24,000 nucleotides of DNA, taken from the NCBI RefSeq assembly GCF_900142245.1, contig NZ_FRAG01000006.1, positions 2,804 to 26,803 on the forward strand. The letters are read 5' to 3'. This document shows positions 10,922 to 23,594 of this stretch, one piece after another (the stretch's first letter is position 1; each line of letters starts with the position of its first letter). This stretch comes from Paramaledivibacter caminithermalis DSM 15212 (GTDB lineage Bacteria > Bacillota > Clostridia > Peptostreptococcales > Caminicellaceae). The notes under the pieces are model-generated. The model searched no databases and was not told the DNA's origin. It saw only the letters and a list, made by a program, of their open reading frames with translations. Position numbers and translations under genes: made by a program.

Positions 10922-11275
10922 TTACTTAATTAACCTAAGTGAATATCTTCTTTCCAGATAAAGAATAAGCTCTTTAACCATATCATAATAATTTTTATTA
11001 AGCACACTCCAATTCCTATGATAATTTGCAAAAATATATCTTTTTACACTTAAAGAAGGTATATATGGATTACCTAAAAAATCCGTTTGATCCTTATACA
11101 AGCATAACCTTGTTATTCTACCTTTCCCTACAGTTAAATCATCTGGATTAATACCATTATCTACTGCATCCTTATGTACCAATGCAAACCATGCATAATT
11201 GTCTATAGCACCTTTAATGTATCCATATTTATTACAATTCTTATCAATTTTTATATCATAATTATAATCAGACAT
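10922..11275 (-). CDS. Hypothetical protein (117 aa), family not recognised
   Basis: Clean ORF with a GGAGGGG SD 5 nt upstream of the ATG. Soluble, no motif I can name. Confidence 0.55.
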   Translation of the reverse strand: MSDYNYDIKIDKNCNKYGYIKGAIDNYAWFALVHKDAVDNGINPDDLTVGKGRITRLCLYKDQTDFLGNPYIPSLSVKRYIFANYHRNWSVLNKNYYDMVKELILYLERRYSLRLIK

Positions 11276-11410: not shown

Positions 11411-11443
11411 AAACAAAAAAAGAGCAAGTGATTAGCCTACTCT
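11411..11443 (-). terminator. Rho-independent terminator at the end of the agr-like operon
   Basis: Minus strand reads AGAGUAGG-CUAAUCA-CUUGCUCU (8 bp including 2 G-U pairs) followed by UUUUUUUGUUU. Confidence 0.6.
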
Positions 11444-11465
11444 TTCTCCTATATTATACAATTTT

Positions 11466-11509
11466 GCACATAAAACGTGATGAAATCTCCTTCATCACGT
11501 TTTATGTGC
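11466..11509 (-). other. Perfect 19-bp stem / 6-nt loop hairpin spanning the agrB stop codon
   Basis: GCACATAAAACGTGATGAA-atctcc-TTCATCACGTTTTATGTGC with no mismatch. The agrB TAA (11502-11504) lies in the 5' arm on the minus strand. No U-tract follows (AAAAUUG). Confidence 0.6.
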
Positions 11510-12077
11510 CGAATAATAAATTGACAAACCCAAATATTGTAGCTAAAGTCATCATATCACTAATTTCTTGAAATCCAAATAAATATATGATTATATTAAT
11601 AGTAAATATTATTTTGATAGCCTTTAAGCCATTAGTTTTAAAATAACTTTTTTCTTCCTTAGATAGTCTTTTATTTATGTTATCTATAGTCCCAATTTTT
11701 ATCCCTATTATATAACTTATCATATAGACTAATAGTAATAAAAAGATATTAAAGTCAATATGATATCTTACAAATAAAGCAATCATAGGAACTACTATGC
11801 TTAACATGAGACATATCATACTGTTTTTTGTATGATATCCTCCAAAATATCTTCTTATAAATATAAATGTAACTGTATAAACCACTACCGATGAAAAAGC
11901 AGCCAATTTAGGAATTAATATATTTAGAAGCATTGAAATTACGAATAAACTAACAATCCATATTAGATAATTCATTAAAATCTCAACTGAATATATTAAT
12001 ATCTCTTCCCTTTCTCTATCAGATTCACTTATTAAAGCCATGTATTTACCTAGCTTTACAGCAATATTATGTATCAT
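11502..12077 (-). CDS. agrB: AgrB-family membrane endopeptidase (AIP precursor processing)
   Basis: 191 aa and polytopic. The motif RRYFGGYHTKNSMIC has His and Cys 7 residues apart, as for catalytic H77/C84 of S. aureus AgrB. Its ATG overlaps the stop of the upstream regulator (ATGA). Confidence 0.85.
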   Translation of the reverse strand: MIHNIAVKLGKYMALISESDREREEILIYSVEILMNYLIWIVSLFVISMLLNILIPKLAAFSSVVVYTVTFIFIRRYFGGYHTKNSMICLMLSIVVPMIALFVRYHIDFNIFLLLLVYMISYIIGIKIGTIDNINKRLSKEEKSYFKTNGLKAIKIIFTINIIIYLFGFQEISDMMTLATIFGFVNLLFGT

Positions 12078-12793
12078 TTATTGGATACCTTCTTTTCTTC
12101 TATAAGCTCCTTTTCCACCACATCAACAAACTTACTTAGAAATTCTATGTTTTTAGGTCTTGTTACAAAACCTAATTTACCAAAGGAATTATTATCAAGG
12201 TTTTGTATGATGTTATTTAAGGATCGTCTAATAGATGATTTTTTTTCATCATTTTGATTAGAGAGGGTATCATATACCCTGCTTTTAACCTCCTCATCAT
12301 ACAAAAGCACCTTTATCATTTTTTGAAAAAGGGATTTTTGTTTTAGATCGCATCTATTATTTAATATTTCTTCTGTTTTATCATTTACCTTATTATCTCT
12401 GGAGATGTAGATATCTCTTTTTACAATGTTTAAAACCATATTGAGATCTTCAAATCTCATAGGCTTACCGACCTTATAATCGTAGTATTTCATACGCTTA
12501 ATAATTTCACTGTCATGTAGAAACGTTATTAATATAATAATTGGTCTATATTCTTTTAAAAGATATCCTACCAGCTTATCTCCTTCTAAATAAGGCATAA
12601 AATGGTCAGTTATAATGATATCAAAATCGCATGTTTTCAATATTGCTTCTTTTGCCTGATTGGGGTTATAAAAACCTACAGGGATAATGTCCTTATGAAA
12701 TTCTGATATATATTCACATACAATATCTACTTGCTCCTTAAAGTCATCTATTATAGCTGCTTTAATCTTAATATGATCACCCTCCCTTCTCAA
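12074..12793 (-). CDS. Response regulator, Spo0A paralog (REC domain plus Spo0A_C-like DNA-binding domain)
   Basis: The REC domain has all key residues: IIDD, IIITD(HFMPYLEGD), ILIT and GKP. The C-terminal roughly 105 aa aligns by eye to the Spo0A C-domain. SSIRRSLNNIIQNL matches [20 protein letters not shown] matches FGYT, and RPKNIEFLSKFVD matches KPTNSEFIAMVAD. TTG start with an AAGGAG SD 5 nt upstream. Confidence 0.8.
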   Translation of the reverse strand: MRREGDHIKIKAAIIDDFKEQVDIVCEYISEFHKDIIPVGFYNPNQAKEAILKTCDFDIIITDHFMPYLEGDKLVGYLLKEYRPIIILITFLHDSEIIKRMKYYDYKVGKPMRFEDLNMVLNIVKRDIYISRDNKVNDKTEEILNNRCDLKQKSLFQKMIKVLLYDEEVKSRVYDTLSNQNDEKKSSIRRSLNNIIQNLDNNSFGKLGFVTRPKNIEFLSKFVDVVEKELIEEKKVSNK

Positions 12794-12841
12794 TTAATCT
12801 CCTTAAAGCTATTTTCTATTATGCCATAGTCTACTATTTCC

Positions 12842-12973
12842 TTATTTTCTTAATGCTTTAGGTATTTCTGGTTCGCCAAATACAATTGAACATGCATTGC
12901 TTTGAACCATAGTAGATGCAAATGTGATTAAAGCTGGTACCAATGCCAATAATGCTTTGTTAAGCTTTTTCAT
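12842..12973 (-). CDS. agrD: AgrD autoinducing-peptide precursor (43 aa), absent from the ORF track
   Basis: Hand translation gives MKKLNKALLALVPALITFASTMVQSNACSIVFGEPEIPKALRK. It has an amphipathic leader, Cys plus 4 residues (CSIVF), then an E-P-E-I-P-K-x-L tail like DEVEVPKEL of S. aureus AgrD. An AAGGAGGTGA SD lies 6 nt upstream. The start overlaps the upstream gene by 14 nt. Confidence 0.85.
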   Translation of the reverse strand: MKKLNKALLALVPALITFASTMVQSNACSIVFGEPEIPKALRK

Positions 12974-14186
12974 CCTTTGTCACCTCCTTATAGGGTATTT
13001 GTATATCCAATGCAAAGTATCTGTCCTTGATGATTCGATACCTTGCATTTTCGCCGATAAGGGAAAGCTTTATATTCTCCATATTCAAGTCATGCTCAAG
13101 TATTTTTATCAGCCTTCTTTTTTCTAAGTCATTTAATATAATTTTCAGATTAAAGCTTATATATTCCCTTAGCTCTAAAGTTACAATTACATTTTCAAAG
13201 CTTATTTTCCTCAAGGCAGAATATAAAAGTATCTCCAACATAAAATAAAGCTTCTTAAAATCATAGTCTACAAAACCCAGCCTCTCATCTATGTGATAAT
13301 AAAAGTTTTTATTTGATTCCTTCATGCTTTTAAGGATTTCCTCTATCTTTTCAATTTCAATAACATTTAAATATGTCTTCATTAAATTCAAATAATAATA
13401 TATTTCATCTTCTGTGCTATTATATAAAAGGGTCTGAAAGGTGCTTTGGGGACTATTTAATATCTCCTTGTAATTCTCATATAATATGGTTCTACTCAAT
13501 AAAACCATAGTTACTATCATAAACACTATCGTCTCTATGAGGAATATTTGTATATTTATAAATATTTTTCTAGCATCAATATCATATAAGTATATCTTGA
13601 AAAAAATTTCATTATAATTCATACTAAATAAATAACCGCTTAAAAGCAGAGCTACTATAACATGAAAGGTTATCTTCTTCGATTTTGATAATAGATTCCA
13701 TGGTAAAGTCAATAGTTTATTTGATTTTAAATTAAATTTTAAGCATATAAATACTGTTATTATTTGAAAAATCCTAGTGGGAAACGAAAATATAAATCTA
13801 TACTGAAATAGATTACCAGAATATTTAATTTTTAACAAATTAATAATAGGTGTAGAAAAAGTTTCATAAAATATTAAAGCAAATACCGCTAGATATCCAC
13901 CTAATAAAGCTTGTCTAACATTAAGTCTAAAAACAACTTTAAGAATAAGAATATAGTATAATAAAGATATAATACTCATTATTATAAAACTATCTATATT
14001 TTTCCTTATTATGATTAATACTAAAGGAAAAACAATGGAAACCAATAATGTTTTAATTACAAACCTTAAACTAAACTCTTTAGATTTAAAAATATTTCCC
14101 TTGATTAGAATTATTCCTATTAAGCATGTTAATAGAACCTCGGGAGTACCGACAATTATTGCATCAATTAAACTCATATTTTCCAT
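12960..14186 (-). CDS. AgrC-like polytopic membrane sensor paralog 2, kinase motifs not recognisable
   Basis: 6-7 TM helices by eye plus a cytoplasmic domain of about 180 aa. That domain resembles the AgrC/HPK10 DHp+CA layout but lacks the H-box, N-box Asn and G1/G2 glycines. Start trimmed to ATG 14186 (MENMSL) after a GGGGAGAG SD. Confidence 0.65.
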   Translation of the reverse strand: MENMSLIDAIIVGTPEVLLTCLIGIILIKGNIFKSKEFSLRFVIKTLLVSIVFPLVLIIIRKNIDSFIIMSIISLLYYILILKVVFRLNVRQALLGGYLAVFALIFYETFSTPIINLLKIKYSGNLFQYRFIFSFPTRIFQIITVFICLKFNLKSNKLLTLPWNLLSKSKKITFHVIVALLLSGYLFSMNYNEIFFKIYLYDIDARKIFINIQIFLIETIVFMIVTMVLLSRTILYENYKEILNSPQSTFQTLLYNSTEDEIYYYLNLMKTYLNVIEIEKIEEILKSMKESNKNFYYHIDERLGFVDYDFKKLYFMLEILLYSALRKISFENVIVTLELREYISFNLKIILNDLEKRRLIKILEHDLNMENIKLSLIGENARYRIIKDRYFALDIQIPYKEVTKDEKA

Positions 14187-14279
14187 AGGTCTCTCCCCAA
14201 TCCTCATAGGTTTATGTCAATATATTCATTGATATATTCTATAAAAATTATTAAATCTTTACTATACATTTTTGGGGAA

Positions 14280-15509
14280 TTAATTTTTTATATGTTTTTC
14301 CAAATCATTATATGGTACACATATTTCCAACTCAAAATATTTATCTTTATTAATCCGATATTCTGCACCTTCCTCTACAATGGAAAACTTTAAATTCTCC
14401 ATATCTAAGTCTTGTTCAATTATCTTCAATAACTTTCTTCTTTCTATATCATTCAATATTATTTTTAAGTTAAATCCTATATTATCCTTTAATTCCAAAG
14501 TAATTATTGTATTCTCAAAGGTAACTTGTCCTAATACCTTATCTTTAAACATTTCCAATAAAAAATATATTTTTTTAAAATTATACCCTGTCATCTCTAA
14601 GCTTTTATCAATATGGTAATAAATATTTTTATTGGCTGCCTTCATTTTTTTTAGTAATTCTTCTACCATATCAATACCTATGACATTAAGGTAATCCTTA
14701 GTTAGACTTAAATAATAATATATTTCTTTTTCCGTACTGTTATATAATAATCTTTCAAAGGCCTTCCTTGGACTGCTTAGTATATCCCTATATTCTTCAT
14801 ACTGGATGGTTCTGCTCAATAAAATAATTATTACTATCATAAATGCAATAGTTTCTATAAAAAATATTTGTATATTAAAAAATATTTCTTTGACATCGAT
14901 ATTGTATAAGTCTATCTTCATATAAGTCTCAGTGTAGTTGGCACTGAATAAATAGGTACTAACAATTAATAGTACTATGGAATAGAATGTCTTTTTCTTT
15001 GACTTTGACAATAACCTCCACTGAATATTTAAAATTTCACTTGATTTTAGGTTGAATACTAAGCATATGAATAATGCAACTATTTGAAATATCCTAGTAG
15101 GTATGGTAAATAAAAATCTATAATCAAAGTAATAGCCACTATATTTTATCCTCATCAAATTCACTATTGGAGTAGACAAGGTCTCACAAAACAATATAAT
15201 AAGCATTACTAAATAACCACATATTAAAGCCTGTCTATAATTAAATTGAAAAACAAATCTTAAAGTAGCAATTATAAATAACATGGATATACATCCTATT
15301 GCTATAAAACTATTTATATTTTTTCTAATGATAATTAGAAGTAAGGAATAGATAGTGGAAGTCAATAATATTTTTAATATAAGTTTTAGATTATAATCTT
15401 TAGACACAAATATATTTCCATTTATTAAAACAATACTTGTTAAATAGACTAAGAAAACCTCAGGAATACCTACAACTATTACATCCAGTAACTTTACATT
15501 ATCTTCCAT
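14280..15509 (-). CDS. AgrC-like polytopic membrane sensor paralog 1, kinase motifs not recognisable
   Basis: Roughly half the residues are identical to the 12960..14186 product over the full length, with the same architecture. Start trimmed to ATG 15509 (MEDNVKL) after a GGGGGAAG SD. The track start at 15590 adds 27 residues with no SD. Confidence 0.65.
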   Translation of the reverse strand: MEDNVKLLDVIVVGIPEVFLVYLTSIVLINGNIFVSKDYNLKLILKILLTSTIYSLLLIIIRKNINSFIAIGCISMLFIIATLRFVFQFNYRQALICGYLVMLIILFCETLSTPIVNLMRIKYSGYYFDYRFLFTIPTRIFQIVALFICLVFNLKSSEILNIQWRLLSKSKKKTFYSIVLLIVSTYLFSANYTETYMKIDLYNIDVKEIFFNIQIFFIETIAFMIVIIILLSRTIQYEEYRDILSSPRKAFERLLYNSTEKEIYYYLSLTKDYLNVIGIDMVEELLKKMKAANKNIYYHIDKSLEMTGYNFKKIYFLLEMFKDKVLGQVTFENTIITLELKDNIGFNLKIILNDIERRKLLKIIEQDLDMENLKFSIVEEGAEYRINKDKYFELEICVPYNDLEKHIKN

Positions 15510-15673
15510 AGGTCTTCCCCCAATATTCATTCTTATATACTTATATTTTACAAAAAAATGTAATTTCCCACAAGATGTTTTCTTCGACATTATTTTACAT
15601 TTTTCACGTCCTTGTTATATCAAGCCTTTCACGATTTAATAATATGCTATAGGAATTTAAGTAAAGATTTTAA

Positions 15674-15761
15674 TTTATACATATCCAAAATGGTCAAAAA
15701 CATTGCATGTTTATACATATCAAAATATCCAGAGCTTTTAAGGATTTTTGATGTGTATAAA
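15674..15761. repeat. Three copies of an 18-20 nt motif TTTATACAYATC(C)AAAAT (two direct, one inverted) upstream of the agr-like operon
   Basis: Copy 1 at 15674-15693 is tttatacatatccaaaatgg. Copy 2 at 15710-15730 is tttatacatatcaaaatatcc. Copy 3 at 15741-15761, read on the minus strand, is tttatacacatcaaaaatcct. Copies 2 and 3 form an inverted repeat around a 10-nt centre. Confidence 0.7.
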
Positions 15762-15844
15762 TTAACTGTTTTACTGGAATATCTATATATAAAAGAATTA
15801 TTATTATCTGTAAATAGGGTATTAATGCTAATATATTAAATTTT

Positions 15845-15873
15845 AAACAAAAAAAGAATAGGCCCTTAGCCTA
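15845..15873 (-). terminator. Weak terminator of the small 15866..16012 ORF
   Basis: Minus strand reads UAGGC-UAAGG-GCCUA followed by UUCUUUUUUUGUUU. The stop codon sits in the loop. Confidence 0.4.
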
Positions 15874-16012
15874 CACTTTCTTCTTTTCTTAGAAATTCTA
15901 TTTTATTTTTTGTTAATTCATTATACAGCTTTAAATCAATTTTTCCATTTTCAAGCAATTTATCGCAAAGCTCGATAAAATTTTCTACAATTTCAACTAA
16001 TTCTTCATACAT
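15866..16012 (-). CDS. Hypothetical small helical protein (48 aa)
   Basis: ATG 16012 (MYEELVEIVENF...) is preceded by GGAGGTAGAAAA, while the track start at 16054 lacks an SD. Charged and helical-looking; no motif recognised. Confidence 0.4.
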   Translation of the reverse strand: MYEELVEIVENFIELCDKLLENGKIDLKLYNELTKNKIEFLRKEESVG

Positions 16013-16310
16013 TTTTCTACCTCCACATACAATTTTCTTTAAAATTATATGCAAAAAACTGAGTTTTATACCATTTATTCCTTAAACAATTTATTTTTTT
16101 GATCTTTTATATTTCAGAACAAAGGCGTCTGACGACTGATTTTAGTTGCAAGTTCTATGTTGCAAGTACTAGGATCTTTCTGGTAAGTTTTTAAAAAACA
16201 ATTTGTACAAATATGTTACTGGCAATAATTTTAATTCTCCTTCTAGTACTCTATTTTACTCTGTTTTAGCTATGCAATTTCTTTTAAAAAAAGTTTGAGT
16301 TCTTTAGCAA

Positions 16311-17354: not shown

Positions 17355-17384
17355 ATCAAAAAAAGGCAAAATTATTTGCCTTTT
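17355..17384 (-). terminator. Rho-independent terminator of the LiaF-like gene
   Basis: GGCAAA-uaau-UUUGCC is flanked by A and U runs. The minus strand continues UUUUUUUGAUUUG. It overlaps the stop codon at 17383-17385. Confidence 0.7.
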
Positions 17385-18267
17385 ACTCAACCCTCACATC
17401 AAATTTTCCAATACCTGTATCCACATCTATTTCCAGCTTCTTTTCAGCATTTTCGTAGTTCGGTGATATATAACTATCCCCTGATTTATACCATCCCAAT
17501 CCGCTAATATTAGTGTTTTTTATACCTCCATCAAAATCAGCCTTTACTCCAAGATTCTCTGGTATAGTTATCTCAAGATTTGATATTCCCCCATCAATAT
17601 CAACCTTTGTGTAATCTTGTTTATCTCCAAATTTTAAATTCAAATTAGATACTCCCATATCCATATCAAGCTTTGATATTTTTAGGCTGCTAAAATCCAA
17701 AGTCCCATTTATTGCACCAGTATCTATATCTATGTCCCATAATACATTATTATTTAAATTAAAATTGTAATCATAGGATTTCTTGTTATTTAATTTTATA
17801 AAATCAATTTCTTGTTCAATATTTATATCTACTTTAGTTTTGTCATCACTAAATCTTACTTGTCTTTTTACATTTGAACTAGATACCTTTGCTTTTATGA
17901 GATTATCATTTATTGAATTTATTTTTATATTTCCTCCTGCTAATTTAAGCCTTAATTTCCCAATACTAGTTTTTTCGTGAGTTGCTTGAACAAAATTGGG
18001 ATTCGAATTAAAAGTAATATCATTTTTCCATTTATAGTCTCCATAAAAACCAAGCAGAATTACAATAATAAAAAATATTCCCCATGTAATATACCTGATT
18101 AAATTATTAGCTCTAAATATTATATTTATCCCTATCACTATAAGTATTAAAGGCCATAGCCTAAAGATTCCATAAAAAGACCAATTTATAATCCCAAGGT
18201 TGCTCATAAGCAAAAAAACACCTATGAAGATTAGTATAAATCCACCTAAATTACCCCTGCTTTTCAA
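17383..18267 (-). CDS. LiaF-like / DUF4097 (toast-rack) membrane protein
   Basis: N-terminal LiaI-LiaF-like TM hairpins (GFILIFIGVFLLMSNLG, WPLILIVIGINIIF). The C-terminal beta-rich repeat region has DxDxG(I/V)xN periodicity. TTG start with a GGGAGGA SD 8 nt upstream, 1 nt after the pspC-like stop. Confidence 0.7.
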   Translation of the reverse strand: MKSRGNLGGFILIFIGVFLLMSNLGIINWSFYGIFRLWPLILIVIGINIIFRANNLIRYITWGIFFIIVILLGFYGDYKWKNDITFNSNPNFVQATHEKTSIGKLRLKLAGGNIKINSINDNLIKAKVSSSNVKRQVRFSDDKTKVDINIEQEIDFIKLNNKKSYDYNFNLNNNVLWDIDIDTGAINGTLDFSSLKISKLDMDMGVSNLNLKFGDKQDYTKVDIDGGISNLEITIPENLGVKADFDGGIKNTNISGLGWYKSGDSYISPNYENAEKKLEIDVDTGIGKFDVRVE

Positions 18268-18268
18268 G

Positions 18269-18709
18269 CTAATTTTCCTCCCTTTTCTTAAATATTATAA
18301 ATGCTCCAAGGATTATTAAAGCAACTGGCCATAATTTACCTAAATCAAACCAATAAACGTACTTCTTAATTAAAAATAAAACTCCTAAAACAATTAATAT
18401 CGTTCCTATAAGAATCCTATTTTTATCATTCTCTCCATTTTCTTTCCCATAATAATGCTCATATTTGTCATCATAATTTTTAGCACCAACTACGTACTCA
18501 TCATCATTTAATGCAGTATTATAGCTTGATCCTTCTGGAAAAACTATAGCACAGATTATATAGGCAATAATACCCGCTCCCCCCATAAGAGTAAATATTA
18601 CCCATGCAATTCTTACTAGTGACGTATCAATTCCAAAATAATCTGCAATTCCTCCACATACTCCCGCAAGTATCCTATCATTTCTTGAGCGATATAATCT
18701 TTTTGACAT
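18269..18709 (-). CDS. PspC domain-containing membrane protein
   Basis: RLYRSRNDRILAGVCGGIADYFGIDTSLVRIAWVIFTLMGGAGIIAYIICAIVFP is a canonical PspC domain. A C-terminal TM hairpin follows. Confidence 0.85.
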   Translation of the reverse strand: MSKRLYRSRNDRILAGVCGGIADYFGIDTSLVRIAWVIFTLMGGAGIIAYIICAIVFPEGSSYNTALNDDEYVVGAKNYDDKYEHYYGKENGENDKNRILIGTILIVLGVLFLIKKYVYWFDLGKLWPVALIILGAFIIFKKREEN

Positions 18710-20809: not shown

Positions 20810-21496
20810 ATGAATATACTTGTATGTGATGATGATAAAGAAATAGTTGAGGCCATAGAAATATATCTAAAAAATGAAGGTTACAACATCTTTAAAGCTA
20901 ATAATGGATTAGAAGCATTGAAAATATTAGATAATTCAGAAGTTCATCTTATTATAATGGATATTATGATGCCCAAGATGGATGGTATGAAGGCTACAAA
21001 TAAAATTAGAAAAACTAAAAATATTCCAGTTATAATGCTTTCAGCTAAATCTGAAGACATGGATAAAGTAATGGGCTTAAATATAGGAGCTGATGATTAT
21101 GTTACTAAGCCCTTTAATCCATTGGAGCTTATAGCTAGAGTTAAATCTCAGCTTAGAAGGTATACAACCCTCGGAAGCTATACCCAAACAACAGGAGTTT
21201 ATAAAACTGGTGAATTAATCATAAATGATGAGAGTAAAAAAGTAACTGTAGATGGTGAATTAGTTAAATTAACACCTATAGAATATAAGATACTTAAATT
21301 TTTGACAGAAAATGCTGGTAAAGTATATTCCATAGAACAAATATATGAAAATGTTTGGCAAGAGCCAGCATATAACCCAGAAAACACAGTGGCTGTGCAT
21401 ATTAGAAGAATAAGAGAAAAAATAGAGATAAATCCAAAGAAACCAAAATACTTAAAGGTGGTGTGGGGAATTGGCTATAAAGTGGAGAATATTTAG
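20810..21496 (+). CDS. OmpR-family DNA-binding response regulator
   Basis: REC domain (DDD, IIMDIMMP, MLSA, TKPF) plus a winged-helix trans_reg_C domain (LTPIEYKILKFL, VHIRRIREKIE, VWGIGYK). Confidence 0.93.
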   Translation: MNILVCDDDKEIVEAIEIYLKNEGYNIFKANNGLEALKILDNSEVHLIIMDIMMPKMDGMKATNKIRKTKNIPVIMLSAKSEDMDKVMGLNIGADDYVTKPFNPLELIARVKSQLRRYTTLGSYTQTTGVYKTGELIINDESKKVTVDGELVKLTPIEYKILKFLTENAGKVYSIEQIYENVWQEPAYNPENTVAVHIRRIREKIEINPKKPKYLKVVWGIGYKVENI

Positions 21497-23594
21497 CCAT
21501 TCATTAATAACAAAAATTATTGTTTTTATAATAACTATAGCTTGTTTTTCTTGTAGTATAACAATGTTTATAAATCTTATAGAGATAACAAATAGTGACA
21601 TAGATATAGTTTTTGGAGATAATTATTATAGTAGTCATGGATATATAAATGAATTGTACAATTTAACTAGATATCTATCCCAATTAATTATAACTTATAA
21701 AAGCCAAGATTACATATTATCTGGTGGAACCGTTACTGAAAAAGACTTTGAAATAGAAAAAGAAATTCTTTTTTCAGAGTTCCAAAATAATTCAAATAAA
21801 TATAATCCTAATTGGTCCCGTGAAAAAAATTATGAAGCATTTGAAAGGTATGCCGCCAATAAAATATTAGAAGAAAAAAATAGATTGATTCAGGAGGATT
21901 TAAAAAAGTTTAAATCATATTTGAAAAAATTGCAAAACTTAAATGGAATCTTATATTATATAAGCGATGGTGAAAATGAATTTACCAACAGTCCAAATAA
22001 ATCTAAAGAATATTTTAAAAAATATCCTTCTTATATAGTATTTGATAAATCTGATGAAATAATATTTCCAAATGAAGTTAAAAATAATCCAGAATATAAT
22101 TGGATTAAAAACAATATTGCACAATTAGTTCAAGAAGACTATGTTATGTATATTGCATTTATTGAAGGTCCTTTGAATGATCGAATTAAAGAATGGGAAA
22201 AAAATAAAGCAGCTGTCACTGAAACCTTATATATAATAGCATACTTACTTGCAGGCTTATTGATTTCTTTTATATATTTAGTATTGGTTATTGGCAGAAA
22301 GTCATTTAATGATAATAAGCTTCATTTTAATTTCATAAATAAGCTCTACAATGATATCAATATTGTCCTGTGCTTAGGCATTATAGCATCATGGTTTGGA
22401 GCTATGGGATTTGTATTTGATAATGATGTATATGAAATCATACTTCCTATAACTGCTATATTAGGTACTTTGGGATTAATATTAGTCCTATCATTAGTTA
22501 AACATATTAAAAATAGGACACTCATTAAGCATACATTAGTTTATACTATATTGAGCAGATTTTTTAGTTTCATAAAGTCCATCTATAATAGTGGTAGTGT
22601 TGGAATAAAAATTATATTAATAGTAATAGGTTATCCCTTAATAATAGGATTATCTTTCTTTATATTTGTACTAGGTCTATATAATGTCATACTAGTTATC
22701 CTAGCATTGTTTATTTCTCCTACAGCTATAGGAATAGCATTATGGTTATCACTCAAAAAAGTAAAAGAATTCAATGCAATAAAGGAAGGTGTAGAAAAAA
22801 TAAAAAATGGATATATACATCATAAAATAGACGTATCTGGAAATGGAGAGTTTGGGAAGCTTGCTTCTAATATTAATAGCATAGCCGATGGATTAAATAA
22901 AGCAGTTGACAATGAACTTAAGAGTGAGCGATTAAAAACAGAGCTTATTAGCAATGTATCCCATGATATAAGAACTCCCCTTACTTCTATAATAACCTAT
23001 ATAGATTTGTTGAAAAAGGAGGGCTTGACCTCAGAAAACTCTGAAAAATATTTAGGTGTATTGGAAAAAAAATCTTTGAGATTAAAGTTTTTGACAGATG
23101 ACCTATTTGAAGCTTCCAAGGCATCTAGTGGTGATATTCCTGTTAATATTGAAAAAATAGATATAGTCTCTCTGCTAACCCAAGGTATGGGTGAATTAGA
23201 TGATAAGATAGCTTCTTCGGGATTAAAATTTAAGTTTAACTATCCAGCAGAAAAGGTATTTGTTAAAGCCGACGGTAAGCTCCTATGGCGTGTAATAGAA
23301 AACCTTATGTCAAATATCTTTAAATATGCCCTTAGAAGCTCAAGAGTTTATATCGATGTCCTTGATTCAGACAATAGCGTTTCTATTGTTTTTAAAAATA
23401 TATCTTCTTACGAACTTAACATAAATGCAGATGAGTTAATGGAACGTTTTAAACGTGGAGATGAATCTAGAAACAGTGAAGGCAGCGGTCTTGGACTATC
23501 AATTGCAAAAAGTCTTGTGGAACTACAGAATGGTGAATTCAGTATAGAAATTGATGGTGACTTATTTAAATCTATAATTGTTCTGCCTAAATAG
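21471..23594 (+). CDS. Sensor histidine kinase (large extracytoplasmic domain, multi-TM block, HAMP, HisKA, HATPase_c)
   Basis: H-box SNVSHDIRTPLTSI, N-box LMSNIFKYA and G-box GSGLGLSIAKSLVE. TTG start at 21471 has AAGGTGGTG 7 nt upstream and overlaps the regulator gene end. The first in-frame ATG would fall inside TM1. Confidence 0.9.
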   Translation: MAIKWRIFSHSLITKIIVFIITIACFSCSITMFINLIEITNSDIDIVFGDNYYSSHGYINELYNLTRYLSQLIITYKSQDYILSGGTVTEKDFEIEKEILFSEFQNNSNKYNPNWSREKNYEAFERYAANKILEEKNRLIQEDLKKFKSYLKKLQNLNGILYYISDGENEFTNSPNKSKEYFKKYPSYIVFDKSDEIIFPNEVKNNPEYNWIKNNIAQLVQEDYVMYIAFIEGPLNDRIKEWEKNKAAVTETLYIIAYLLAGLLISFIYLVLVIGRKSFNDNKLHFNFINKLYNDINIVLCLGIIASWFGAMGFVFDNDVYEIILPITAILGTLGLILVLSLVKHIKNRTLIKHTLVYTILSRFFSFIKSIYNSGSVGIKIILIVIGYPLIIGLSFFIFVLGLYNVILVILALFISPTAIGIALWLSLKKVKEFNAIKEGVEKIKNGYIHHKIDVSGNGEFGKLASNINSIADGLNKAVDNELKSERLKTELISNVSHDIRTPLTSIITYIDLLKKEGLTSENSEKYLGVLEKKSLRLKFLTDDLFEASKASSGDIPVNIEKIDIVSLLTQGMGELDDKIASSGLKFKFNYPAEKVFVKADGKLLWRVIENLMSNIFKYALRSSRVYIDVLDSDNSVSIVFKNISSYELNINADELMERFKRGDESRNSEGSGLGLSIAKSLVELQNGEFSIEIDGDLFKSIIVLPK

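Follow-up and report, generated by a model that had tools for sequence, protein, structure and literature searches.

How does an agr-type peptide-signaling operon pass on its signal when the regulator encoded within it resembles Spo0A and the membrane proteins beside it lack kinase motifs? This question is raised by a 24,000-nucleotide (nt) stretch of the Paramaledivibacter caminithermalis DSM 15212 genome (assembly GCF_900142245.1, contig NZ_FRAG01000006.1, positions 2,804 to 26,803; hereafter the window, numbered from its first letter). Here, an operon of five tightly packed genes on the minus strand (11415-15874, with a terminator-like hairpin at each end) encodes, in 5' to 3' order, two membrane proteins (sensors 1 and 2), the peptide precursor AgrD, a response regulator of 239 amino acids (aa), and AgrB. 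We consider it probable, at roughly 60%, that this regulator is a rare, uncharacterized offshoot of the Spo0A family, composed of a receiver and a Spo0A_C-type helix-turn-helix, which serves as the transcriptional output of the agr-type cassette in place of the LytTR regulator AgrA. An agr-type operon of a deep-sea clostridium would then have had its usual regulator and kinase replaced by a diverged Spo0A copy and kinase-less membrane proteins.

The regulator gene (12793..12074, minus strand) begins with a TTG codon, 5 nt past an AAGGAG ribosome-binding site and 48 nt after the end of agrD, and its stop overlaps the start of agrB by 4 nt. A first-pass annotation had placed it between agrD and agrB, and both neighbors were recovered by their own families: agrB (11502..12077, minus strand) encodes the 191-aa AgrD-processing membrane peptidase (PF04647, 7.3e-24), and agrD (12842..12973, minus strand) a 43-aa autoinducing-peptide precursor (TIGR04223, 23.8 bits for a cut-off of 19), whose start overlaps the end of the sensor 2 gene. 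The C-terminal part of AgrD, ...ACSIVFGEPEIPKALRK, contains both the Cys-x4 ring and the acidic C-terminal recognition tail. The ring is predicted to comprise the five residues CSIVF, and this region differs among orthologs, reading CCSGY in Wukongibacter. AgrB and AgrD of the cassette are, in brief, present and typical.

The N-terminal part of the regulator (approximately residues 9-125; 12419..12769, minus strand) is a receiver. BLASTP aligned this domain only, with 30% identity to Bacillus subtilis Spo0A over residues 9-117 (E 6e-9), and the best of 18,950 NCBIfam models was that of Spo0A itself (TIGR02875, 1.4e-9, model positions 2-138), the next family following at 7e-4. Spo0A receiver structures were also among the top matches of a phmmer search of the PDB. 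The Pfam Response_reg model scored 26 bits, under its gathering score of 30.2, and reached up to 54 bits in relatives. Furthermore, the phospho-acceptor residues (DD, D, T, K) that the first-pass annotation had reported as complete were all found, as D16, D17, D63, T90, and K110, and this pocket is kept in every receiver-bearing member of the family but P0014.

Kinship of the C-terminal output domain (residues 133-239; 12077..12397, minus strand) became visible only with family profiles and structure prediction. Pfam, NCBIfam, BLASTP, and phmmer against the PDB recovered the receiver and not the C-terminal half. A Spo0A_C profile search had been among the checks proposed with the first-pass annotation; in its plain form it was negative for the regulator, with no Pfam match to PF08769 even at E<=1, whereas a true Spo0A scored 109 bits. 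An exhaustive profile search among 1.84 billion cluster representatives brought up a small family, its proteins 211-262 aa long, along with four C-domains standing alone, and the family profile also matched one true Spo0A (P0128) over both domains (E 3.7e-4 among the 1.84 billion proteins). Sub-threshold Pfam Spo0A_C matches were seen in five of the ten distant family members, the best being P0013 (2.7e-5, 24.5 bits for a gathering score of 25), which also aligned by BLASTP over its full length with a true Spo0A from a gut contig (4e-14 pairwise, 3e-7 in a 2.3-Gb database). When compared with the PDB, a 16-member C-domain profile matched the Spo0A structure 1LQ1 end to end at rank 2 (E 0.087, marginal if taken alone), and hhalign aligned the family C-domain with three Spo0A C-domains over 95 columns (P=3.4e-5). 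The pairs (V/L)Y...S.(V/I).R...I and (K/R)P.N.EF(I/L), previously matched by eye, fall in the same columns as in hhalign. A word-indexed homolog search with a 21-sequence family profile added only generic LytTR, OmpR, and NarL receivers.

Structure prediction, another check proposed at the outset, returned a Spo0A_C fold. Residues 133-239, modeled by AlphaFold from a family alignment of 16 sequences without any Spo0A, reached a predicted local distance difference test (pLDDT) value of 85.3, and the top seven Foldseek matches in the PDB were 1LQ1/1FC3 chains (probability 1.00, TM-score 0.6-0.69, root-mean-square deviation 2.7-3.8 Å), followed by a match at probability 0.15. In a viral structure library, the top six matches of the same model were phage proteins annotated 'Spo0A C terminal'. 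In this domain the equivalent of the recognition helix reads SSIRRSLNNII, and the motif GF..RPKN.EFL is the counterpart of FGY...KPTN.EFI in Spo0A. We regard it as very unlikely that the C-terminal likeness is generic or due to chance, that is, an ordinary helix-turn-helix of LuxR or sigma-4 type, or a coiled region, forming an unrelated tail on a receiver. Such a tail would fit the missing direct Pfam and BLAST matches, the uninterpretable full-length AlphaFold model built with five close homologs (pLDDT 37), and the modest Foldseek E value (6e-3), but the leading PDB and viral matches were all Spo0A_C, with a sharp drop behind them and with NarL and sigma-4 folds at a probability of at most 0.35. 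The model-independent sequence evidence, namely the hhalign result, the five sub-threshold Pfam relatives, and the BLASTP match of P0013, also argues for Spo0A_C.

Judged by these profiles and models, the regulator belongs to the Spo0A family by both domains, distant though the kinship is, as the first-pass annotation had held in describing a likeness along the whole length. By the same comparisons it is not Spo0A proper and belongs to a remote branch of the Spo0A_C fold, because it scored 37.6 bits for the 200-bit equivalog cut-off of TIGR02875, in the receiver part only, carries a different recognition helix, and has no spoIVB neighbor. Indeed, no spoIVB-like gene was found within the 24-kb window, and no recN neighbor either. 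The greater divergence and the location away from spoIVB had both been pointed out before; the actual neighbors are agrD and agrB. We rejected, on the low equivalog score, the missing Spo0A_C match, and the absent spoIVB and recN neighbors, the reading of the regulator as the one genuine, unusually diverged Spo0A of the organism, which is extremely improbable; moreover, the family is fixed in agr cassettes, several of them on mobile-element-like DNA, and includes stand-alone C-domains. The latter are proteins of 90-117 aa that consist of the Spo0A_C-like domain only (P0037, P0071, P0088, and P0093). At locus L013 (302-601), a stand-alone Spo0A_C-like gene lies just upstream of two short seven-transmembrane genes and agrD.

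The term paralog, in its strict sense, requires a genuine spo0A elsewhere in the P. caminithermalis genome, which we infer to exist. Paralogs of Spo0A have been reported in 11 of 118 Spo0A-encoding Clostridiales genomes (bioRxiv 10.1101/2022.02.25.481979); a literature search on whether P. caminithermalis sporulates or carries spo0A gave nothing usable.

The promoter of the operon provides further evidence of a connection to Spo0A. A perfect 0A box, TGTCGAA (15583..15589, minus strand), the motif having been fixed beforehand by the Spo0A literature, is the sole copy in the window and is followed 32 nt downstream by a -10-like hexamer, TAAAAT (15545..15550, minus strand). A degenerate box, TGTAAAA (15593..15599, minus strand), lies upstream and forms a tandem with the perfect one, their starts being exactly 10 bp apart; the same 10-bp tandem spacing is familiar from Spo0A sites such as those of abrB. 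Alignment of the promoter regions of the window and of the Wukongibacter loci delimited 15510-15590 as conserved non-coding DNA that holds the 0A box. The mechanical open reading frame of sensor 1 (436 aa) reaches 15590 and takes in this conserved promoter DNA as its first 27 codons; because 15510-15590 is conserved non-coding DNA, the true start of sensor 1 is likely M28 (MEDNV), at 15509.

A perfect or near-perfect 0A box was present in all 11 loci with upstream sequence. The exact TGTCGAA was found, in the same orientation and 45-98 nt upstream of the first cassette gene, at L003/L004, L008, L011, L012, L017, and L019 (positions 1070 in L003; 4888 in L008; 4937 in L011; 4483 and 4492 in L012; 3898 in L017; 3866 in L019). 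L012 has two perfect boxes, 2 nt apart, and in L019 the box is followed by TAT and then TGTCGTT. One-base variants occur at L001/L002 (TGTCGAT), L018 (TGTCGAC), and L013 (AGTCGAA), always with G2, C4, and G5 retained, which are the bases contacted specifically by Spo0A (PMC3485338); concerning residue-level DNA contacts of Spo0A, our literature search gave base-level contacts only. The distance from box to -10 hexamer is exactly 32 nt in the window (TAAAAT), L001 (TAAAAT), L003 (TATAAT), L008 (TATAAT), L011 (TATCAT), and L017 (TACAAT), approximately 31 nt in L012, and approximately 33 nt in L018. A degenerate TGTAAnn stands exactly 10 bp upstream of the box in the window, L001, and L003. By shuffling, the chance of a box within the upstream 150 nt was 0.004-0.008 per locus, or about 1e-9 for four independent lineages. 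On sequence grounds, the putative 0A box is conserved and occupies a fixed, activator-like position. A relaxed 0A consensus, TGGCGAA, also lies inside agrD (12925-12915, and at about 2492 in L003), where the codons of the conserved G-E pair in the AgrD tail account for it, and is probably a coincidence. A direct repeat, TTTTG(G)ATATGTATAAA, with two copies about 38 bp apart (15700-15760, minus strand), was dropped as an operator candidate, since it is not conserved in Wukongibacter.

Which protein reads this box is a separate matter. We hold it possible, although on the whole improbable, that the conserved 0A box is a site for the genuine Spo0A of the host, so that the cassette belongs to the Spo0A regulon and is switched on at stationary phase or sporulation onset, while the regulator reads another motif. 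The recognition helix of Spo0A is nearly invariant in Firmicutes, which fits an exact TGTCGAA across loci whose proteins are 20-35% identical, and 0A boxes read by host Spo0A are known from phages and other mobile elements (PMC2731898). The helix of the regulator family departs from that of Spo0A at E213, R217, and H218; the regulator has SSIRRSLNNIIQ, with S210, R214, and I220 kept. On the other hand, the 0A box accompanies the regulator family at every locus examined, and the family helix is conserved in itself (S-T-I-R-K/R-x-L/I), with S210 and R214 retained. Autoregulation is, besides, the rule in agr systems, as with AgrA at agr P2. The two assignments of the box, to host Spo0A and to the regulator of the cassette, can coexist.

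Regarding the partners of the regulator, sensor 1 (14280..15509, minus strand) and sensor 2 (12960..14207, minus strand) are paralogs with 58% identity. Sensor 2 comprises about seven transmembrane segments and a cytoplasmic tail of about 175 aa without kinase motifs, and its true start is likely M8, at 14186, matching the 408-aa NCBI annotation. Its sequence is 100% identical to that of a P. caminithermalis protein annotated as hypothetical. Ten variants of these membrane proteins align over the N-terminal ~250 aa, with about seven transmembrane segments and a cytoplasmic C-terminus. A PE pair in the first segment, K52, R68, a P.R..Q motif, N197, K204, and the juxtamembrane Y243 are invariant, R239 and E244 are nearly so, and no conserved histidine was found among the invariant or near-invariant columns of the ten. 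The long forms end in a poorly conserved cytoplasmic tail of about 150-175 aa, which is absent from the forms of 282-295 aa (partners of P0011, P0013, and the L013 locus).

The first-pass annotation had remarked that the adjacent sensors lack kinase motifs, and this was true across the family. No kinase or other family was detected by Pfam in the ten variants, by a profile search of the PDB, or by a profile search of 5.8 billion sequences, and the membrane proteins adjoining the regulator gave no HisKA or HATPase match. Nor did they resemble AgrC of phage CDHM1 (hhalign probability 0.4%); the sole aligned stretch was the last 14 residues (P=0.16), where a decayed GHKL domain is at most hinted at, which is not evidence for one. 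From position and topology, the two seven-transmembrane proteins, which hold the place of AgrC in the cassette, are likely peptide receptors.

In this context, we propose the following working of the cassette. AgrB would process the 43-aa AgrD to a cyclic peptide, to be sensed by the seven-transmembrane proteins, which would not act as histidine kinases; it is from gene order alone that we infer control of the regulator by the peptide signal. Since the acceptor pocket is conserved, presumably by selection, while the membrane proteins of the cassette are non-kinase, the regulator would probably be phosphorylated from elsewhere, by unlinked kinases or by acetyl phosphate. In clostridia, Spo0A is phosphorylated by orphan kinases. 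The membrane proteins may tune the regulator through direct contact instead of phosphotransfer, with the invariant juxtamembrane R...YE..K..L helix as the likeliest contact surface. The pocket is also kept in P0011 and P0013, whose membrane partners (284-285 aa) have no cytoplasmic domain. Once active, the regulator would bind the 0A box of its own promoter and establish positive feedback, comparable to that of AgrA at agr P2, and it may reach other 0A boxes, coupling the peptide signal to the Spo0A regulon.

Several points weigh against assigning the output of the cassette to this regulator. It falls under the Pfam gathering thresholds for both Spo0A_C and Response_reg. Compared with Spo0A, its recognition helix carries the changes E213->R, R217->N, and H218->N, and because the helix differs at these positions, binding to TGTCGAA is not assured; an invariant host Spo0A explains a perfectly conserved box in diverged loci just as well. 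Peptide binding by the seven-transmembrane proteins rests on position and topology, and a kinase for the regulator was not identified. Finally, phosphorylation is not family-wide, because the acceptor pocket is no longer present in P0014 and some relatives consist of the C-domain alone. In P0014 (L003, 2594-3382), the acidic pair is lost, the phospho-accepting Asp is replaced by Q, and the Lys by T, in a full cassette with a 423-aa membrane protein; from these substitutions, it is probably a phosphorylation-independent variant.

The association of the regulator with agr peptide genes is, nevertheless, a property of the family. The first-pass annotation had tied the regulator to these genes, and the cassette recurs in relatives of 20-35% identity, so the arrangement is more than a peculiarity of this locus. 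Closest among the genomic relatives, at 81% identity, are those of Wukongibacter baidiensis and Wukongibacter sp. M2B1, which both have the same five genes in another chromosomal neighborhood. Beyond these, the regulator family is rare and patchy, and the order membrane protein-agrD-regulator-agrB is kept at 20-35% identity with P0014, P0013, P0011, P0009, P0012, P0008, P0016, and P0006. P0010 (L016, 1408-2540) is a partial exception: a partial upstream open reading frame and a 44-aa peptide gene precede its regulator, which is followed, in place of agrB, by genes for the antitoxin MazE and for the anti-Pycsar protein Apyc1, of metallo-beta-lactamase fold. The gene content of L016 points to a phage context. 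In public annotation, members of the regulator family appear as 'response regulator of citrate/malate metabolism' or 'CheY-like', and the membrane proteins as 'hypothetical'.

At five loci (L008, L011, L012, L017, and L018), the cassette comes after a DndB-like gene and an MrpR-type tyrosine recombinase, which in L012 matched phage families (phrog_5732, DndB-like, 2e-71; phrog_5830, integrase, 3e-58). Further neighbors among the relatives include PemK toxins, a TIR protein, TubZ, MazE, and the anti-Pycsar Apyc1. Part of the regulator family thus seems to be carried by mobile elements of phage or plasmid-like kind, in line with published reports that place Spo0A effector domains on phages and on mobile elements of the gut (PMC10294663; bioRxiv 10.1101/214213). 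Searches of mobile-element collections, by tblastn of the query against phage and plasmid sequences and with the subfamily profile against IMG/VR, returned no family members. Among the individual loci, L019 (1647-3593) carries a TubZ-like tubulin gene with a small upstream gene, divergent from and adjoining the P0016 cassette, a combination typical of the segregation genes of plasmids or phages. In L008 (621-2021), L011 (607-2017), and L017 (1-1128), the recombinase is preceded by genes for, in this order, a PemK toxin, a tetratricopeptide repeat (TPR) protein of about 226 aa, and a 43-44-aa open reading frame; the last two look like a second peptide-signaling pair, of RRNPP type.

This carriage bears on whether the regulator works as a Spo0A mimic or decoy, competing for orphan kinases or 0A boxes, so that the cassette promotes or blocks host sporulation by peptide census and has no private regulon. 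The receiver being closest to that of Spo0A and the output domain having the Spo0A_C fold are in keeping with a decoy, as are the phage-type integrase, DndB-like, TubZ, toxin-antitoxin, and anti-Pycsar genes adjoining the relatives, the truncated spo0A effector domains known from phages (PMC10294663), and the enrichment of PF08769 on gut mobile elements (bioRxiv 10.1101/214213). We nonetheless judge it unlikely: the cassettes of the window and of Wukongibacter lie among housekeeping genes in recombinase-free surroundings, and the family was absent from the phage, plasmid, and IMG/VR collections as searched. As a tentative and rather doubtful extension, we envisage a kinase-less peptide pathway in which a seven-transmembrane receptor would control a Spo0A mimic by contact, the mimic would occupy 0A boxes genome-wide, and a peptide census would move the host into or out of sporulation; its users would be the cells themselves or, in other lineages, the phage or plasmid-like carriers.

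The remaining features of the window delimit the operon and describe its surroundings. A terminator-like hairpin 3' of agrB (11415..11449, minus strand) ends the five-gene operon, and that of the upstream 62-aa gene (15858..15874, minus strand) insulates its promoter. The flanking genes are of housekeeping type (valS, a folC-like gene, GNAT, CDP-alcohol phosphatidyltransferase, and speE). Small genes lie on either side of the cassette on the minus strand, one of 117 aa (10922-11275, with a weak DUF7678 match) and one of 62 aa (15866-16054, without a match). At 20810-23594 (plus strand), an ordinary OmpR-type response regulator is paired with a HAMP-HisKA-HATPase kinase; this pair is unrelated to the cassette and shows that canonical two-component systems are readily recognized in this genome. 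A PspC-domain protein and a LiaF-like protein, encoded in tandem at 17383-18709 (minus strand), constitute a cell-envelope stress module.

No decision circuits of Firmicutes have been studied better than those of agr and Spo0A, and peptide input to clostridial sporulation is still debated. A Spo0A-derived regulator in an agr cassette, behind a textbook 0A box, is a concrete and testable physical link between both, and cassette and box together point to an undescribed connection of peptide signaling to the sporulation switch. In a limited literature search, which retrieved Spo0A paralogs, phage effector domains, and phage agr genes, we did not find a description of an agr cassette combined with a Spo0A-like regulator, and the regulator family is effectively undescribed. 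Control of the receiver seems to proceed without any partner kinase; the conserved acceptor pocket, together with the bare membrane partner of some relatives, raises the question of how a seven-transmembrane receptor signals to a receiver. Moreover, the location of cassettes by phage-type integrases, TubZ, and anti-defense genes suggests a possible use by mobile elements, to read or to manipulate the dormancy of the host.

Compared with Spo0A (P06534; 1QMP, 1FC3, 1LQ1), the regulator shares the succession of receiver, linker, and six-helix Spo0A_C with its helix-turn-helix, a receiver closest to that of Spo0A among curated families, the pattern Y...S.(V/I).R..(I/L)..I in the recognition helix, and FG(Y/F)...(K/R)P.N.EF(I/L) at the C-terminus. 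It also shares TGTCGAA in the regulated promoter, its binding there being our proposal, and, as with clostridial Spo0A, no kinase gene stands alongside. Unlike Spo0A, to which its receiver is about 30% and its C-domain about 18% identical, it has a shorter linker and a loop ahead of the last helix that is 5-9 residues shorter, does not carry the invariant recognition helix, and is encoded in an agr cassette and not by spoIVB, in a rare and patchy family with several members by mobile-element genes.

Similarly, the cassette resembles agrBDCA of Staphylococcus, Listeria, and Clostridium in its typical AgrB and AgrD, its compact and translationally coupled arrangement, the polytopic membrane protein at the position of AgrC, the ring sequence variable between orthologs, and a promoter element placed for autoregulation. 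It differs in a regulator whose output is Spo0A_C, with no LytTR match, in membrane proteins without the HPK10 core (no H-box histidine, no ATPase motifs), reduced in some relatives to the membrane domain alone, and in the order sensor-D-regulator-B, where canonical systems have B-D-C-A. We liken the cassette to agr and the regulator to Spo0A in function, yet the tests that define membership in either came out negative.

With the Spo0A effector-domain homologs of phages and mobile elements (PMC10294663; bioRxiv 10.1101/214213), the family has in common a Spo0A_C fold outside the sporulation gene, several members by integrase, DndB-like, TubZ, and anti-defense genes, and stand-alone C-domain relatives. 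The published phage homologs are recognizable by PF08769 and receiver-less, whereas this family lies under the Pfam threshold, has in most members a receiver whose pocket is intact, and is linked to agrBD. Phage phiCDHM1 (PMC3901668) likewise presents an agr cassette on a clostridial mobile element, beside a lysogeny module; it encodes a conventional AgrC kinase, with HD H-box and G-boxes, and no regulator, while the cassette described here dispenses with the kinase and carries a Spo0A-like regulator.

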